Shown piece after piece: positions 3,462 through 41,905 of a stretch of DNA of 46,863 nt. How positions within the stretch are numbered: position 1 is the first letter of the stretch; every line of letters starts with the position of its first letter. Both the position numbers and the translations under genes were made by a program. Below the pieces are notes generated by a model, which had not been told where the DNA came from, did not search any database, and saw nothing but the letters and a program-made list of their open reading frames with translations. Source of the DNA: Promethearchaeota archaeon (lineage in GTDB: Archaea; Asgardarchaeota; Lokiarchaeia; Sigyniarchaeales; SOKP01); the NCBI GenBank assembly GCA_016930515.1, contig JAFGGO010000183.1, positions 1 through 46,863 on the forward strand. Direction: 5' to 3'.

Positions 3462-3902
3462 ATGGATGATCTAAAATTTTCACTCTTGTCTCTTGAGGAA
3501 TTTCAAGAATTGGACGACGAAGAAAAATGGAACTATGTCGAGGCGCTCGTTAAGCAATTGTATGAATATAAAGTTATGGCTGATAAGAATTGCGATGATT
3601 GCATGTATCGGCTTCAAACAAGTCGGGATGTTAATGTAGATCTTTATTTCGACGACTGGAGGGAATGTGCTAATCATTGCGACGAATGTGACCAAGAAAG
3701 TTTAAAAGAAATGTGTGAAGTTCAATTCCAAATAATGAATCACCTTGCCAATCTTGTGTTTGAAATTCAACTCCGACAAAACCGCCTGGTACAGTTTTTA
3801 TACAAGAAAGATCCAAAAGGGCAAGAGATTCTTGAAGAGATGAAAAAGGCAAAAGAAGAAGCCGAAAAAAGAGAGAAAAAGGCAAGCGATATGTTCTTAT
3901 AA
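3462..3902 (+). CDS. Hypothetical acidic protein with two CxxC motifs
   Basis: 146 aa ORF with CDDC and CDEC and a coiled C-terminus; ends 13 nt before the rnhB start. Confidence 0.7.
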   Translation: MDDLKFSLLSLEEFQELDDEEKWNYVEALVKQLYEYKVMADKNCDDCMYRLQTSRDVNVDLYFDDWRECANHCDECDQESLKEMCEVQFQIMNHLANLVFEIQLRQNRLVQFLYKKDPKGQEILEEMKKAKEEAEKREKKASDMFL

Positions 3903-3915
3903 GCCTTGAGCGCAT

Positions 3916-4617
3916 ATGAGTGAAATTAACGTGTGTGGCGTAGACGAGGCAGGTAGAACATAAATCGTATCGATTAAGGTGCCAAAAGGACCCGTCTTAG
4001 GCCCATTAGTGTTGTGTGGTGTATGTTTTTTAAAAAAAAATCTTGATTTCTTAAAATCAATTGGAGTTAAGGATTCTAAAAAGCTCACTGCAAAAAAAAG
4101 GAAGGAATTAGCGCAATTAATTATTTCTAACTGCCAATGTTACACCTTAATTGTTGTGTCTCCTAAGGAAATCGATGAGAGAGAAAGAAAAAATATGAGT
4201 CTTAACCGATTGGAAGAAATTAAAATGGCTGAGATATTAAATAACCTCAAGCCAGATGAAATATATTTAGACGCTGCAGATGTTAAAGAAGAGCGGTTCG
4301 GGAATTCTATTGAAGCACTTATCAATTTTACTCCTAAAAAAATAGTTTCAAAACACAAGGCAGATGACATTTATCCAATAGTATCCGCCGCTTCAATAAT
4401 TGCAAAAGATAAACGAGATGAATTGATGAAAAATTTAAGTATAAAACACGGAAATCTAGGATCGGGATATCCTTCTGACGAAAAAACGATTAATTTTCTT
4501 AAACAATGGGTAAAACAGCATAAAGAAGCCCCTCCTTTTGCCCGAAAAACTTGGAAAACAACAAGAAGAATCATTGAGGCAGAAATTTCTAATAGAAAGA
4601 TTACGGATTTTATTTAA
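3916..4617 (+). CDS. rnhB: Ribonuclease HII, interrupted by a 30-nt putative BHB intron (exon 1 3916-3956, exon 2 3987-4617; 223 aa after splicing)
   Basis: ATG 3916 reads MSEINVCGVDEAGR then ACA TAA. The same frame resumes GPVLGPLV, VKDSKKL, IYLDAAD, HKADD, VSAASIIAK, GSGYPSD. The ORF-track start at 3979 lacks the catalytic D-E residues. Confidence 0.92.
3957..3986 (+). other. Putative bulge-helix-bulge mRNA intron in rnhB
   Basis: Bulges AGA (3955-57) and AAA (3985-87); central helix AGGU/GCCA with one A-A mismatch; in-register intron stem with core AAUCG/CGAUU; in-frame UAA inside. Confidence 0.75.
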
Positions 4618-4650: not shown

Positions 4651-5337
4651 TTATTTTTTAATTATGAGCATAATATGCTTCTCTGCGTGTTTTTGGATAC
4701 TAATGCTTTCCAAAATTTCCATATTTGCTTTTCCTATCGCTTGTTTCTCTTGATTAAAGATTTTATCTAAATTGCCCACGCTATCAATCGATTGGCTTTT
4801 TATTGCGAGAATCACTATTCCCCCTTTTTTAAGGTAGTATTCGCTATTTTTTATCGCAATTTCGGCTTGATTTGGCTGTGCTACATCCTGATAAATTAAA
4901 TCAATTTTATTAAAGATTGTATTCGCATAATTTTCTGGTAAGTTAGCATCTCCCAAAATTGGGATTATATTATTTCGCTTTTCGCTGTTTTGAATTAACT
5001 GTCTAATGCTTCTAGGTGCAAACTCAACTCCATAAATTATTCCTTCTGTATTAATATCGGATAAATGTGATATAGTGGTTCCTGAAGAGGCTCCAAGATA
5101 CAAGCAATTGAATTTTTTTGAGAAAAAATTATGAATAGGATTTTTAATCAATAAAGCCGCAAGCTTGCTCCTATAAGGATCCCATTCTCGATATTCGAAA
5201 TCCCTAAATTGGATTAATCTTTCTCCGTAAACGCTTATTCCTGGAATTAAATTTTTAGTGAAAAGTTTTGGGTTTTCGGGATTTCCCGAAATATAAACAT
5301 TGTAAAATTTTGGATGGTTGCGTATTTCAAATTCCAT
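4651..5337 (-). CDS. flpA: Fibrillarin-like rRNA/tRNA 2'-O-methyltransferase
   Basis: VYGERL, YREWDPYRSKLAA, LYLGASSGTTISHLSD, YQDVAQPNQA. Confidence 0.95.
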   Translation of the reverse strand: MEFEIRNHPKFYNVYISGNPENPKLFTKNLIPGISVYGERLIQFRDFEYREWDPYRSKLAALLIKNPIHNFFSKKFNCLYLGASSGTTISHLSDINTEGIIYGVEFAPRSIRQLIQNSEKRNNIIPILGDANLPENYANTIFNKIDLIYQDVAQPNQAEIAIKNSEYYLKKGGIVILAIKSQSIDSVGNLDKIFNQEKQAIGKANMEILESISIQKHAEKHIMLIIKK

Positions 5338-5339
5338 TA

Positions 5340-6569
5340 CTATTTCCCTCGATTAGTTCCTTTTCTTGTTTTTTTTGGTTTGTTTTTCTGTACTTTTTGG
5401 ACTTTTTGCTGTTTTTTAGGTGGAATTGGATATTTTTCTTCGATTTCTTTGATTTTTTTCATCACATCTTTAGATATCTCGTTTCCTATAAAGTCTCCCT
5501 TAAAATAATCGATCTTTGCGGCAAGACCAATTTTTCCAGATACGATCCTGCTTATTTTTCCGCGTAAATGGCTCTTACTTCCCCGAATCATGTTCCATTG
5601 AAATATTAACCCGTGCTTTGGAATCCCCTTACCAGTTTTTAAAAACCTATAAAGAGCGGTCTCAGCACCAAGCAGTTGAATTCTTGAAGCTGGCATGTAG
5701 GCTAATTTTTTTAGTCCTCCAGCTTTAGTAATTAATTTTGCTCCAATCAAGCTTCCTACAATTGCTTTAAGGTTAGGCGCAATATCGTCCATTAATCCTT
5801 CTAGATTAGATTCTAAGTCTTCTCGAAAAGTATCTAAAGTGAGAATTTGTCTTGCGTAAGCTTGAACCAAGCTTAAATCGAAATCTGCACCCATTGAGGT
5901 AGAAGAGCTTTGGATTAAAAATTGAACTCTTTTCTCGTTTAACTCGAAATTATCTTTTAAATTCTCGCCAGTATAATTTTTTCTTAATCCTATAACATCA
6001 ACTAGCTTCGCTAAAAGAATATTATCCTCCAAGATCCTATCTGTCAATTCGGGAAAGTAAAGTCCGTACCATTCTCTCAAACGAGCCGAAAACAAGCTTA
6101 TAGATTTCTTAAGTGTATCTAAGGTCTCAATGATTTGTATCACTGCAATATCGCCCTGTTCTCCTACTTGACTGATTTGTTTTTTTATCAATTCTTGACT
6201 AACATTTTTGTGTTTCAAGGCAATATCTTCTTGAGATTTGTATATCCCAATGCTTTTTAGATGTTCCTCCAAGTTAAATCGATAACTTTTAAATTCTGGT
6301 GAATACTCGTTTAAGATCGAATCATATTTCTCCTGCTTTTTTAAAAGAGAATGTATTTTTTTATTATCAAAGATAAATTCTTTAAAGCCAGAGTTTATTA
6401 ATTCATTCAACAAATGTTCGAGTTCTTGAGGTACTATCTCATCTTCAATAGCTTTATAAAAATCAATAATTTTTTTGTTATCGTCGTTAAAATCGATAAA
6501 ATTTATCGAATTTCCAGATTCGTCAACAGCAAACAAACCACTTAAAGTATCGACAATATAGCAAATCAC
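5340..6569 (-). CDS. nop5: Nop5/Nop56-58 C/D box sRNP protein
   Basis: RLREWYGLYFPEL, APNLKAIVG, PASRIQLLGAE, PKHGLIF, RGKISR, Lys-rich tail. GTG at 6569 follows a GGAG SD; the ORF is open to 6599. Confidence 0.93.
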   Translation of the reverse strand: MICYIVDTLSGLFAVDESGNSINFIDFNDDNKKIIDFYKAIEDEIVPQELEHLLNELINSGFKEFIFDNKKIHSLLKKQEKYDSILNEYSPEFKSYRFNLEEHLKSIGIYKSQEDIALKHKNVSQELIKKQISQVGEQGDIAVIQIIETLDTLKKSISLFSARLREWYGLYFPELTDRILEDNILLAKLVDVIGLRKNYTGENLKDNFELNEKRVQFLIQSSSTSMGADFDLSLVQAYARQILTLDTFREDLESNLEGLMDDIAPNLKAIVGSLIGAKLITKAGGLKKLAYMPASRIQLLGAETALYRFLKTGKGIPKHGLIFQWNMIRGSKSHLRGKISRIVSGKIGLAAKIDYFKGDFIGNEISKDVMKKIKEIEEKYPIPPKKQQKVQKVQKNKPKKTRKGTNRGK

Positions 6570-6723
6570 TTTCCAAGCTCCTTCCTTATATATGTTCACT
6601 GAAAAAAGATTTCAGGAGACAAATAAATAAAATCAAGCCATGTGTAAAAATTTTTTCACTAGAAATCTAGCCTTCATTAGAAGCGAAAAACACATATAGA
6701 CGTAAAATTAATATTTTAATAAT

Positions 6724-11575: not shown

Positions 11576-13498
11576 ATGGTAAAACTCGATTATCAAAAGA
11601 TTGGACTTAAGTGCGGCTTGGAAATCCACCAGCAACTCGACTCAAAAACAAAGCTTTTTTGTAGATGCCCTAACGAGCTTCAAGGCACTCGGGAACCCGA
11701 CTTTACTGTTAAACGTACAATGAGACCTGTTTTAGGAGAAATGGGAAAATACGACGAGGCGATGCTCACTGAATATCAGAAAGGTTTGGGTATCGTATAC
11801 GAATGTTATAACGATGTTATTTGTACCTACGAATTAGACGAAACCCCTCCCTTTTTATGCAGTATTGAAGCAAAACATATAGCACTAGAAATAGCACTCC
11901 TTTTAAATTCTAAAATTATAGAAGAAATGCATGTCTGTAGGAAAAATTATCTGGATGGAAGCGTTCCATGTGGCTTTCAAAGGACTATGATTTTAGCGAA
12001 AGACGGCTTTATATCGCTAGAAAATGGAAAGAAGATAAGTATTGATATAGTTTGCTTGGAAGAAGACGCTGCACGTAAGACTAAATTCGAAAAAGGTAAT
12101 AATTATTATCGCTTGGATAGGTTAGGCATTCCATTGGTAGAGATTACAACAAATCCCGATATTAGTCATCCTGAGGAATGTCGAGAATGCGCAGAAAGGC
12201 TAGGATTATTATTATGGTCGACAAAAGTAAAGAAAGTACTTGGTTCGATTAGGCAAGACATTAATGTTAGCATAACCGGTGGCACCCGTATCGAAATAAA
12301 GGGAGTTCAAAAATTGGACTGGATTCCCTTGCTTATTGATAGAGAGATAGAACGGCAACAAGGCTTGCTTTGGGTATCGAGTGAAATAAAAAAAAGAGGC
12401 CTTAATATATTGGATGTTCCCGAAAAACCTATTGATTTGTCTCGAAAATTGGTAAAATCAACATCTAAATTTATTTCTAATGGTATTAAAAATGGGAAAA
12501 AAATTTATGGGGTTAATTTTCCTGGATTTAAAGGCTTGTTTGGGAAAGAATTGATGACTGATTATCGATTCGGAACGGAAGTTAGCAGCAAGGTTAAAGC
12601 CATTTCTGGATTAAAGGGAATCATCCATTCTGATGAAAATTTAGATAAATACAAGTTCACTGAAGCAGATATAAAGACATTAAAGGAGAATTTATTTGTT
12701 CAAGAAGGTGATTGTTTCTTGCTAGTTCTTGGAAATAAAGAAGAAGTCGAAAAAGCAATTGATGTTGCTATTGAACGAATTAAAAAAGCCTTTCAAGGTG
12801 TACCTCCCGAAACCCGAAGAGCTCTTGAAGATGGAAGAACAGAATTCTTAAGGGAACTTCATGGGGGTGCTAGATTATATCCTGATACTGATTCGCAAGC
12901 AATATATAACGAGGATAAAGAAATATTGGAGTTAAAGAAAAAACTTCCTGCGTATCCATGGGACACTATCAAGAATTATTCTAAAAAATTCCATCAAGAT
13001 GAAAATATGATAAAAGATCTCATATTCAGCGATAATCTTGGTTTATTTGAAATTCTAATTAAAATTTATCCAGATAATCCTACTAAAATCGTTACTACCT
13101 TATTACAGACAACAACTGCCCTTAGAAGGGACGGTAAGCAAATAGAAAATATAGGAAACAATGATTTTATCGACATATTTACTCTTTTAAAAAACGGAGA
13201 AATAAGTAACGAAGCCGTGGAGGAATTGATGATCGCAAAAGCAGATAATCCCAACTTGTCAATAAGAGAATTAAAAGGAAAATTGAACATTGAAATCCCA
13301 TCGGAAGAAGAGATAGAAAAAAAAATAAAATCTGAAGTGAATAACAACGAAGATTTAATCAAAAACCGCAAAATGGGCGCTCTTGGACCTTTAATGGGAC
13401 CGTTAATGAAAGAATTCAGAAATAAAATAGATGGTAAAATCATCTCTGAGATGCTCAAGAAACACCTTCAAAAGAAGATAAAGGAGTTAGGATTATAA
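11576..13498 (+). CDS. gatE: Glu-tRNA(Gln) amidotransferase subunit E
   Basis: GLKCGLEIHQQL, KLFCRCP, GFQRT, CLEEDAAR, LDRLGIPLVEI, IRQDINVSI, RLYPDTD. Confidence 0.96.
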   Translation: MVKLDYQKIGLKCGLEIHQQLDSKTKLFCRCPNELQGTREPDFTVKRTMRPVLGEMGKYDEAMLTEYQKGLGIVYECYNDVICTYELDETPPFLCSIEAKHIALEIALLLNSKIIEEMHVCRKNYLDGSVPCGFQRTMILAKDGFISLENGKKISIDIVCLEEDAARKTKFEKGNNYYRLDRLGIPLVEITTNPDISHPEECRECAERLGLLLWSTKVKKVLGSIRQDINVSITGGTRIEIKGVQKLDWIPLLIDREIERQQGLLWVSSEIKKRGLNILDVPEKPIDLSRKLVKSTSKFISNGIKNGKKIYGVNFPGFKGLFGKELMTDYRFGTEVSSKVKAISGLKGIIHSDENLDKYKFTEADIKTLKENLFVQEGDCFLLVLGNKEEVEKAIDVAIERIKKAFQGVPPETRRALEDGRTEFLRELHGGARLYPDTDSQAIYNEDKEILELKKKLPAYPWDTIKNYSKKFHQDENMIKDLIFSDNLGLFEILIKIYPDNPTKIVTTLLQTTTALRRDGKQIENIGNNDFIDIFTLLKNGEISNEAVEELMIAKADNPNLSIRELKGKLNIEIPSEEEIEKKIKSEVNNNEDLIKNRKMGALGPLMGPLMKEFRNKIDGKIISEMLKKHLQKKIKELGL

Positions 13499-25026: not shown

Positions 25027-25133
25027 TGGCGGGCTATGAGGGATATTCGCCTCCATCCTTGTTGGATGGAAGTATCGAACCCCCGACCGTCAGGTTAAGA
25101 GCCTGCTGCGCTACCTGCCTGCGCTAATAGCCC
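25027..25133 (-). tRNA. tRNA-Lys(CUU) with a 30-nt BHB intron at non-canonical position 59/60 (intron 25044-25073); CCA encoded
   Basis: Acceptor GGGCTAT/ATAGCCC, anticodon loop CT-CTT-AA, T-arm GGGGG TTCG AT^...^T CCCTC. BHB helix TTCG/CGAA, bulges ATA and TAT, intron stem CTTCCATCC/GGATGGAGG. Confidence 0.92.
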
Positions 25134-25167
25134 ATATTACGAAAAATGATGTTTTAGTGCCTAAAAA

Positions 25168-25280
25168 CGCAGATGGAGGGACTTGAACCCCCGAGCGCTT
25201 GCGCGCACTGGCTTTCGTGCGTTCGCGGTTCTTTCGATGCGTGCCTCAAGGCCAGCGTCTTACCACTAGGCTACATCTGC
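25168..25280 (-). tRNA. tRNA-Ser(UGA), class II, with a ~31-nt intron at 37/38 (25214-25244); CCA not encoded
   Basis: Acceptor GCAGATG/CATCTGC, discriminator G73, anticodon stem CTGGC/GCCAG, variable arm GCGC-GCAA-GCGC, T-loop TTCAAGT. Relaxed BHB: CTTG/CACG with one mismatch. Confidence 0.85.
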
Positions 25281-40798: not shown

Positions 40799-41905
40799 TC
40801 ATTCTGGAAATATTTTTCTTCTTATAAAAGTCTTATATAATGGCAAAATTTTTAAAATTGAAGTATTTTCTTCTAAACAATCTTTTAAACAGAGATAAAC
40901 AGAATTTGGTAGGTTTTCTTTTAACTTTAATCCTTTCTTGATAAAGGAATTTTGCATTAATAGTGTTTGCATCGCAATGAAATTTTGAAAAGTTTCTTGG
41001 TCACAATTTAATTCTTCAGGAATCCATTGTAGTGACTTTTGCGAGGGATATTTCAAAATTTTTTTATTGCTTGCATATAAAATGTTCCCAATTAGCGTTT
41101 CTTTTGAAGGAAAAATCGTTTCATATTGACTTAAACCATAATAGGAATTAACTAGCGGATCTTGTCGAACACTTGGAGGTATTATTGATTGGAATACTTC
41201 TGAACATTTGGCATTATAACCATGGTCAATGAAAGGATAAATAAAAGAACTATTGGGATTTTTTAAAATTAAAAACTCGCGATCAGAAGCGTATTCAGGA
41301 TTCACAAGAGGAAAAGGTAATCCTAACGCTTTATGAAGCATGAATGAATAACTCATATTAATAAATCCAACATTATTCACGATCGTTCCGATACAAATCG
41401 GATAATGCATTATAAAGCTCAATCCGACTCCGAATACATTAAGACATTCAAAATCCTGTTTCGTTCTGTAAATGAGAAGAAGTCGATCGTTTCTCATTGC
41501 TCCCGTATTAATGTAGTAATGAGGTGCTTTATTGTGAACGTTTTGCGTGTGATACATTGAAGCAAAAGCGGATCCTATCCTGATTTTATCGAACCAAGCC
41601 AAAAGCAGGTTGAGATCTTTCGGATCTAATGGTCTTTTATCGATAATATCTTGCATTATTTGTCTTGCTTTTCCTTCAATTTGTTCTCCAAAATCTTTAT
41701 TACATTGATAACATGCTGGAAGAACAAATGTTTTGAAAGGAAATTTCTTGATTTCAACGATTCCATCATTAATAAAAGGACCAAATGTACCTTGCCTATT
41801 AATGCTTCCAGTAAGTTCTAATAACCATTTTGGGAGCAGGTGCTCGTTATTCTTATCTACGGGAGGCTTTCCACAAAAAATACAAAATCTTTCCATTAAA
41901 ATCAC
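40799..41905 (-). CDS. Hypothetical protein with N-terminal HNH-like Zn-nuclease motif
   Basis: CIFCG...EHLLPKWL...PACYQCN; low GC. Confidence 0.55.
   Translation of the reverse strand: MILMERFCIFCGKPPVDKNNEHLLPKWLLELTGSINRQGTFGPFINDGIVEIKKFPFKTFVLPACYQCNKDFGEQIEGKARQIMQDIIDKRPLDPKDLNLLLAWFDKIRIGSAFASMYHTQNVHNKAPHYYINTGAMRNDRLLLIYRTKQDFECLNVFGVGLSFIMHYPICIGTIVNNVGFINMSYSFMLHKALGLPFPLVNPEYASDREFLILKNPNSSFIYPFIDHGYNAKCSEVFQSIIPPSVRQDPLVNSYYGLSQYETIFPSKETLIGNILYASNKKILKYPSQKSLQWIPEELNCDQETFQNFIAMQTLLMQNSFIKKGLKLKENLPNSVYLCLKDCLEENTSILKILPLYKTFIRRKIFPE

Follow-up and report, generated by a model that had tools for sequence, protein, structure and literature searches.

How is ribonuclease HII (RNase HII) made from a gene whose catalytic motif is interrupted by a stop codon? 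This question is raised by rnhB at positions 3916-4617 (+) of contig JAFGGO010000183.1 (assembly GCA_016930515.1) from a Promethearchaeota archaeon, of which positions 1-46,863, a stretch of 46,863 nucleotides (nt), are termed here the window. The locus reads MSEINVCGVDEAGR, followed by 30 nt with an in-frame TAA, and then by GPVLGP. We consider it probable, at roughly 0.88, that positions 3957-3986 are a bulge-helix-bulge (BHB) intron, that is, an intron of the tRNA type, in the rnhB pre-mRNA. If so, a core enzyme of DNA repair provides an example with very strong comparative support, based on 81 species, covariation, selection, and the register of the predicted cuts.

An insert with an in-frame stop divides the active-site motif

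The open reading frame (ORF) that starts at ATG 3916 translates as M-S-E-I-N-V-C-G-V-D-E-A-G-R, with the bases at 3943-3957 (GAC GAG GCA GGT AGA) encoding D-E-A-G-R, and then reaches the TAA at 3961-3963. Read in codons, the inserted bases are ACA TAA ATC GTA TCG ATT AAG GTG CCA AAA, after which come GGA CCC GTC TTA (G-P-V-L). Specifically, 30 bases past the Arg codon the frame is picked up again with G-P-V-L-G-P and stays open up to a stop codon that ends at 4617. The first-pass annotation of this DNA had described just such a layout, with one exon, 30 extra nt containing UAA, and a further exon, and the sequence bears it out. In terms of the proposed intron, exon 1 (3916-3956, +) comprises MSEINVCGVDEAG plus the AG of the Arg codon and holds the Asp-Glu pair of the DEAGRG motif; the 30-nt intron (3957-3986, +) contains the TAA; and exon 2 (3987-4617, +), supported by alignments to Pfam and Protein Data Bank (PDB) entries, begins with the third base of the Arg codon and continues with GPVLGP through to the stop.

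A six-frame profile search of the whole assembly placed the Pfam RNase_HII profile (PF01351) across the insert, at profile positions 1-199 (E = 4.5e-44) with one TAA inside, and exon 2 alone matched profile positions 8-199 (E = 3.3e-43). Exon 2 also aligned with RNase HII from Thermococcus (PDB 2dfh/1io2) from residue 12 onward (E about 1e-47), so that DEAGR corresponds to residues 7-11, and in the alignment to 2dfh it retains the equivalents of Asp105 and Asp135. All four active-site carboxylates and the GRG motif are therefore encoded, with the D-E pair in exon 1; the roles of these residues, including Asp7/Glu8, are those of Tk-RNase HII. Judging from the alignments, the insert separates the active-site Asp-Glu from the remainder of the enzyme, and with this pair also the initial Gly and the Arg of GRG. 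In type 2 RNases H, the GRG motif functions in recognition of the RNA-DNA junction (PMC4132731). The same search of the source genome (G000), the assembly of which is 94% complete, found no second RNase HII locus.

The insert is shared across one Asgard family

We scanned 400 species genomes of the Asgard phylum, which NCBI calls Promethearchaeota, for inserts at this one site using the pattern DEAG-AR, 26-34 nt, GGN YCN GT. The same-site insert was present in 82 of the 400, namely the source genome and 81 of 134 genomes of its family (f1), and the insert-bearing genomes were spread over eight of the family's 13 genera. None of the 265 genomes in 33 other families matched this same-site, 26-34 nt pattern, and a reversed control pattern gave a single match among the 400 genomes. 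Of the inserts in the 81 species, 77 measured 30 nt; two of the others were 29 nt long, and the last two 28 and 31 nt. Additionally, it was common in the archaeon's own family (135 species genomes) for RNase HII matches to contain internal stops and to be longer by about 30 bases. The close relatives carry the name Promethearchaeota, in agreement with the Asgard lineage that had been proposed for this DNA, and comparison of the rnhB 5′ ends showed that insert and structure are both kept in 81 related species.

Each of the 81 copies examined has one or two in-frame stops within the insert (two in 19 copies), with TAA, TAG, and TGA all represented, and in four copies the frame is broken by the insert length itself (28, 29, or 31 nt). 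When the insert was removed, 80 of the 81 gave an ORF of 213-221 amino acids (aa) counted from DEAG, compared to 213-222 in intron-less orthologues; the one remaining copy gave 126 aa only. Exon 1 keeps D-E-A-G-R/K in 81/81 copies despite silent variation, and an in-frame upstream ATG for exon 1 is present in 78/81. Median pairwise dN/dS was 0.179 in the intron-bearing genes (1390 pairs) and 0.160 in intron-less family members.

Some family members with the intron (G058:C9, G067:C18, and G140:C1) have an additional RNase HII-like match that is weaker and spans profile positions 1-165; it sits in long open frames of 558-587 aa, which suggests a fused paralogue. Intron-less genomes hold similar but shorter second RNase HII-like matches.

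The insert and its flanks fit a covarying bulge-helix-bulge motif

The base pairs that had been proposed by hand for the window copy are present in the sequence. These are, in the central helix, G3952-C3983, G3953-C3982, and U3954-G3981, with an A3951/A3984 mismatch; in the inner stem, A3958-U3980, C3959-G3979, U3961-A3977, and AAUCG (3963-3967) with CGAUU (3971-3975); and on the outer side, C3950-G3988 and AGACG (3942-3946) with CGUCU (3993-3997). Read along the forward strand, the motif starts with the 5′ arm of the outer helix h (GACGAGGC, 3943-3950, with A3947 bulged), all of it exon, followed by the 5′ strand of the central helix H (AGGU, 3951-3954), which lies in exon 1 and contains the mismatched A3951, and by bulge 1 (AGA, 3955-3957), in which the 5′ cut is predicted between G3956 and A3957. 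The intron hairpin h′ (3958-3980) has a 9-position stem, with seven canonical pairs in the window copy, and a 5-nt loop. It is followed by the 3′ strand of the central helix (GCCA, 3981-3984), located in the intron, by bulge 2 (AAA, 3985-3987), with the 3′ cut predicted between A3986 and A3987, and by the 3′ arm of the outer helix (GGACCCGUC, 3988-3996, with G3989 and A3990 unpaired), which again is all exon. The intron would hence be built from 1 nt (base 3 of bulge 1), a 9-bp stem, a 5-nt loop, 4 nt (the 3′ strand of the central helix), and 2 nt (bases 1-2 of bulge 2).

We scored this hBHBh′ motif in an alignment of 76 distinct copies (A1), with slid-partner and shuffle controls. Standard pairs occupied 92.7% of cells, compared to 29-45% when the 3′ partners were slid by 1-3 columns, 10 of 20 pairs had changed on both sides, and 0 of 500 shuffles reached the observed covariation score. 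In the central helix (columns 12-15 with 43-46), 93.4% of cells were paired and two of the four pairs had changed on both sides; the column pair 15:43, beside bulge 1, occurred as UG (40), CG (13), GC (13), and UA (9). The inner stem h′ (columns 19-28 with 34-42) was 88.1% paired and showed compensatory changes in eight of nine pairs. The outer helix h (pairs 4-11 with 50-58, seven pairs) was 98.3% paired with wobble-only variation, as it is coding sequence. RNAalifold, to which no structure was given, recovered the outer helix, the 4-bp central helix, and the hairpin core, with G3989 and not G3988 as the partner of C3950. In these respects the insert behaves as a BHB intron, as had been claimed from the window copy, with a 3-nt bulge, a 4-bp helix, a 3-nt bulge, and flanking helices, and it is conserved with compensatory changes in relatives.

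Codon choice in the exons points in the same direction. Within the family, the Glu codon ends in G in 80/81 intron-bearing and 27/43 intron-less genes, the Pro/Ser codon ends in a pyrimidine in 80/81 and 27/43, respectively, and the Arg codon is CGN in 0/81 and 3/43, all of these being counts over related species and thus over non-independent events. These frequencies indicate that silent exon positions that pair are constrained in intron-bearing genes.

Cut register and proposed splicing

Two cut registers yield an identical product from the window copy, and the relatives discriminate between them. In three copies (L026, L045, and L086), bulge 1 is AGU and bulge 2 is AAA, such that Arg (AG+A) is obtained only by a cut after the second base, the alternative register giving Ser and a different length. 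Relatives in which bulge 2 reads ACA, AUA, GUA, AAG, AGG, or ACG also yield Arg (AGA or AGG) with the same cut. Cutting after the second bulge base, which would remove 3957-3986 as the first-pass annotation had it, is the sole register that restores Arg in the AGU copies and, as read from these bulges, is the canonical rule of the endonuclease EndA.

Two EndA-family (PF01974) paralogues were found in the source genome (E = 3.7e-30 and 9.7e-20), one with the Tyr/His/Lys positions and the other without the His; the two EndA subunits are encoded in the regions C83:8498-8722 and C30:14408-14656. Under the motif pattern of the M. jannaschii enzyme (catalytic Tyr/His/Lys, with the beta subunit lacking His), the pair is consistent with an alpha (catalytic) and a beta (structural) subunit of an (alpha-beta)2-type enzyme. 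Asgard archaea are reported to have an (alpha-beta)2 EndA with a loop that confers a broad substrate range (PMC5829648).

We propose that exon bases 3943-3954 and 3988-3996 would fold with the intron into the hBHBh′ motif in the transcript, that heteromeric EndA (alpha + beta) would then cut between AG and A on the 5′ side and between AA and A on the 3′ side, and that an RtcB-type ligase would join the exons to give GGU AGA GGA CCC. The predicted spliced junction is GCAGGTAG joined to AGGACCC, and the D-E-A-G-R-G-P of RNase HII, which serves in catalysis and substrate recognition, would be restored. Left unspliced, the product from ATG 3916 ends after 15 residues and that from GTG 3979 is without the Asp-Glu pair. 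We infer that rnhB mRNA is very probably spliced in the cell, with EndA and RtcB as the presumed enzymes that cut and join it. A proposed link of ribonucleotide excision repair to tRNA splicing found no support beyond simple dependence, and a regulatory version of it is speculation.

A search of metagenome contigs with the spliced-junction pattern returned two matches. Both were distant RNase HII genes (about 70% nucleotide identity) that natively encode DEAGRGSV and are not spliced forms. Three metatranscriptomes from the same study contained almost nothing of the stretch and no sequence matching 3700-4300.

Counter-evidence and alternative explanations

Several observations weigh against an intron at this site. 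With regard to structure, the shuffle control overstates independence since related sequences share ancestry, and the pairing of the outer helix appears compatible with the model and is not proven by covariation. The window copy has one A/A mismatch in its central helix and two non-canonical positions in its inner stem, and its outer helix is irregular, with a lone C-G pair beside bulge 2 followed by two unpaired bases. Moreover, the motif is not the minimum free energy (MFE) fold (canonical pairs -5.1 versus MFE -10.8 kcal/mol), and the single-sequence MFE z-score of -0.28 is not significant for the window copy alone; our judgment that the fold is more than chance rests on comparison with relatives and not on the thermodynamics of this copy. 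Additionally, neither RtcB (PF01139) nor archease (PF01951) was found in the source genome at its 94% completeness.

The alternative that survives best, although improbable, is that the insert is retained and that an N-terminally truncated RNase HII is translated from GTG 3979, with or without a separate 15-residue peptide from exon 1. An ORF does begin at GTG 3979, and in 51/81 introns an ATG, GTG, or TTG stands in frame three codons ahead of the GGN codon with which exon 2 opens. Given an in-frame start codon at 3979-3981, gene callers begin rnhB there, and the first-pass view that automatic annotation would hide the intron is upheld by the comparable starts in the 51 copies. Such start codons (A1 columns 41-43) also pair in the stem and the central helix. 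However, the frequent ATG thereby overlaps bases with a role in pairing, the insert of 27/81 copies offers no start codon in frame, and the truncated product would be without two of the four active-site carboxylates (active-site roles from PMC4132731 and from Tk-RNase HII). Truncation would likewise leave the covarying BHB geometry unexplained, and D-E-A-G-R/K is retained in every exon 1 despite silent variation.

Translational recoding has a smaller chance still, whether the stop is read through, the genetic code is an alternative one, or ribosomes hop past the insert. The majority of inserts are 30 nt, a multiple of three, and a hairpin follows the would-be take-off region, as it does in the ribosome hopping of phage T4 gene 60. 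Against this, the stops are of three types, two stops occur in 19 copies, and the 28-, 29-, and 31-nt inserts are out of frame. Read-through would put 10 variable residues within the GRG substrate-recognition motif, and for hopping there are no matched take-off and landing codons, with landing of tRNA-Arg at AGG 3987-3989 being in the wrong frame. The compensatory changes are, furthermore, specific to the 3-4-3 BHB geometry.

Removal of the insert from RNA by enzymes other than EndA and RtcB seems about as unlikely as recoding. The failure to find RtcB and archease in the source genome would favour it, but RtcB was present in 24 of the 26 genomes searched (the source genome included), with full-length matches in three congeners (G002, G003, and G005), in one of which RtcB and rnhB share a contig and are 26 kb apart. 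Because the assembly is 94% complete and three congeners have full-length matches, the absence is best explained as an assembly gap. The geometry is also exactly that of EndA substrates, the window contains tRNA introns built in the same way, and a self-splicing ribozyme is ruled out by size, 30 nt being far too short.

Lastly, a decaying pseudogene or an assembly artefact, either of which would account for an in-frame stop in the sole gene copy, is on these comparisons effectively refuted by the distribution (the same-site insert in 81 independently assembled species genomes), by the ORFs (80/81 intact after removal, with one shorter frame), and by selection (dN/dS 0.18, equal to intron-less orthologues, with no second rnhB found in the source genome). 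The shared insert, its stops, the restored ORFs, and dN/dS together thus exclude a decaying gene and an assembly error, as well as read-through of the stop and an altered genetic code. Ordinary decay had been doubted from the window copy, and rightly so, as selection is not relaxed and relatives keep the insert and its structure.

Evolutionary history of the proposed intron

In a tree of 135 RNase HII sequences, a short protein with many weak forks, presence and absence of the intron required 14 parsimony changes, at least seven of which fell on well-supported branches. Several sister pairs differed solely by precise absence of the intron. The intron core was common across genera, with the closing C-G pair and one loop U near-invariant. 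The simplest reading, which is not proven, is that the intron was gained once near the base of the family and then precisely lost on repeated occasions; this is suggested by the identical site, by a core common to several genera, and by the lack of the insert in all other families.

Similar proposed introns elsewhere in the genome

The window contains two tandem tRNA genes at 25027-25280 (-), both of which are interrupted. In tRNA-Ser(UGA), about 31 nt are inserted at the anticodon loop. The intron of tRNA-Lys(CUU) is 30 nt long and lies in the T-loop; with its stem of 9 bp and loop of 5 nt, it has the 1+9+5+9+4+2 build of the rnhB intron. ARAGORN found neither interrupted tRNA gene at 25027-25280, and the Rfam alignment of tRNA-Lys was poor.

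Two protein genes of the source genome have comparable inserts. PFK, the sole such gene in the genome, carries a frame-breaking insert of 31 nt between TGGG and DCPGLN (L154 2478-2560 (-), equivalent to G000:C126 ~40943-41025). Its removal gives TGGGDCPGLN, and its central helix is a perfect 4 bp (GCGG/CCGC) with AGU and ACA as bulges. The second is a Rab-like small GTPase (G000:C175 ~12663-12692 (+)) with a 30-nt insert in switch I, located between ...NIFNPSE and RLTIGVDFH..., which contains two stops and, under the strictest BHB filter, has 4/4 central pairs and 7/7 stem pairs.

A genome-wide BHB scan with an ORF-restoration filter gave 523 hits with true geometry and 510-526 with mis-registered decoys, such that it did not discriminate and no genome-wide count of mRNA introns is possible from it. 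In the strictest subset of 13 hits, the only clear case was the Rab-like GTPase on C175. A covariance model of the rnhB intron (R1), searched against the source genome, had rnhB as its sole significant match (E = 8e-8); the next matches (E >= 0.7) were inside intact ORFs or between genes. By this search there is no sign that the rnhB intron sequence has spread to other sites.

On balance, we lean slightly toward the view that uniform introns of about 30 nt occur in ordinary protein genes throughout this family, with rnhB, PFK, and the Rab-like GTPase as the minimum set in the source genome, that mRNA splicing by EndA and RtcB is routine in the family, and that the rnhB intron was gained once at its base and precisely lost at least seven times. 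If true, prokaryotes closely related to eukaryotes would depend on EndA/RtcB splicing for core enzymes, given the location of the introns within catalytic motifs.

Directly adjoining rnhB downstream, on the opposite strand (window 4651-6599, -), are ORFs of 228 aa and 419 aa. By eye we take these to be fibrillarin- and Nop5-like (box C/D ribonucleoprotein proteins), presumably an ordinary archaeal pair.

Comparison with known systems

As of 2020, endonuclease-mediated splicing of an archaeal coding sequence had been confirmed for cbf5 only (PMC7714728), and introns in other protein genes were predicted only (PMC2738675). The searched literature on Asgard introns made no mention of mRNA introns and dealt with tRNA genes only. 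BHB introns in coding sequence are therefore known, from cbf5, and what is new is the proposed occurrence of one in a new gene (rnhB) and a new lineage. Asgard archaea are the group closest to eukaryotes, and together with the further examples in the same genome this opens the question of whether splicing of protein genes by the tRNA machinery is common among them. For annotation, it means that about 60% of the family's species will receive either a truncated RNase HII without the catalytic Asp-Glu or a pseudogene call.

The cbf5 intron of Crenarchaeota (Watanabe 2002; Yoshinari 2006; Yokobori 2009, PMC2738675) is similar to that proposed for rnhB in being a BHB intron inside coding sequence, in having a host with heteromeric (alpha-beta)2 EndA, in causing mis-annotation by gene callers, and in a patchy distribution among relatives that implies gain and precise loss. 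It differs in that the rnhB intron is found in one Asgard family as a uniform 30-nt mini-intron inside the catalytic DEAGRG motif, and in that splicing has been shown experimentally for cbf5, whereas the case for rnhB is one of sequence comparison. Asgard and TACK archaea also have non-canonical tRNA introns, among them those of tRNA-Lys (30 nt) and tRNA-Ser (31 nt) in the window, that have the same motif and size and presumably the same EndA and ligase; that of tRNA-Lys has the same internal build as well. Unlike in these tRNAs, the exon half of the rnhB motif is coding sequence with constrained silent codon positions, and the product would be an mRNA.

The BHB intron in the 5′ untranslated region of Haloferax volcanii HVO_1309, demonstrated by circRNA-seq and in vitro cleavage, is, as proposed for rnhB, an mRNA substrate of the archaeal splicing endonuclease (PMC7714728). 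In contrast to rnhB, it lies in an untranslated leader, is 46 nt long, interrupts no reading frame, and belongs to a host with a homodimeric EndA. Finally, in the unconventional splicing of HAC1/XBP1 mRNA in eukaryotes, Ire1 cleaves at stem-loop sites and a tRNA ligase or RtcB joins the exons. Both there and in the mechanism proposed for rnhB, an mRNA intron is released by a protein endonuclease, the exons are joined by a ligase of tRNA splicing, and the active protein needs splicing; however, Ire1 is a different endonuclease with a different recognition motif, and splicing of HAC1/XBP1 is regulated by stress, for which rnhB offers no evidence of a counterpart.
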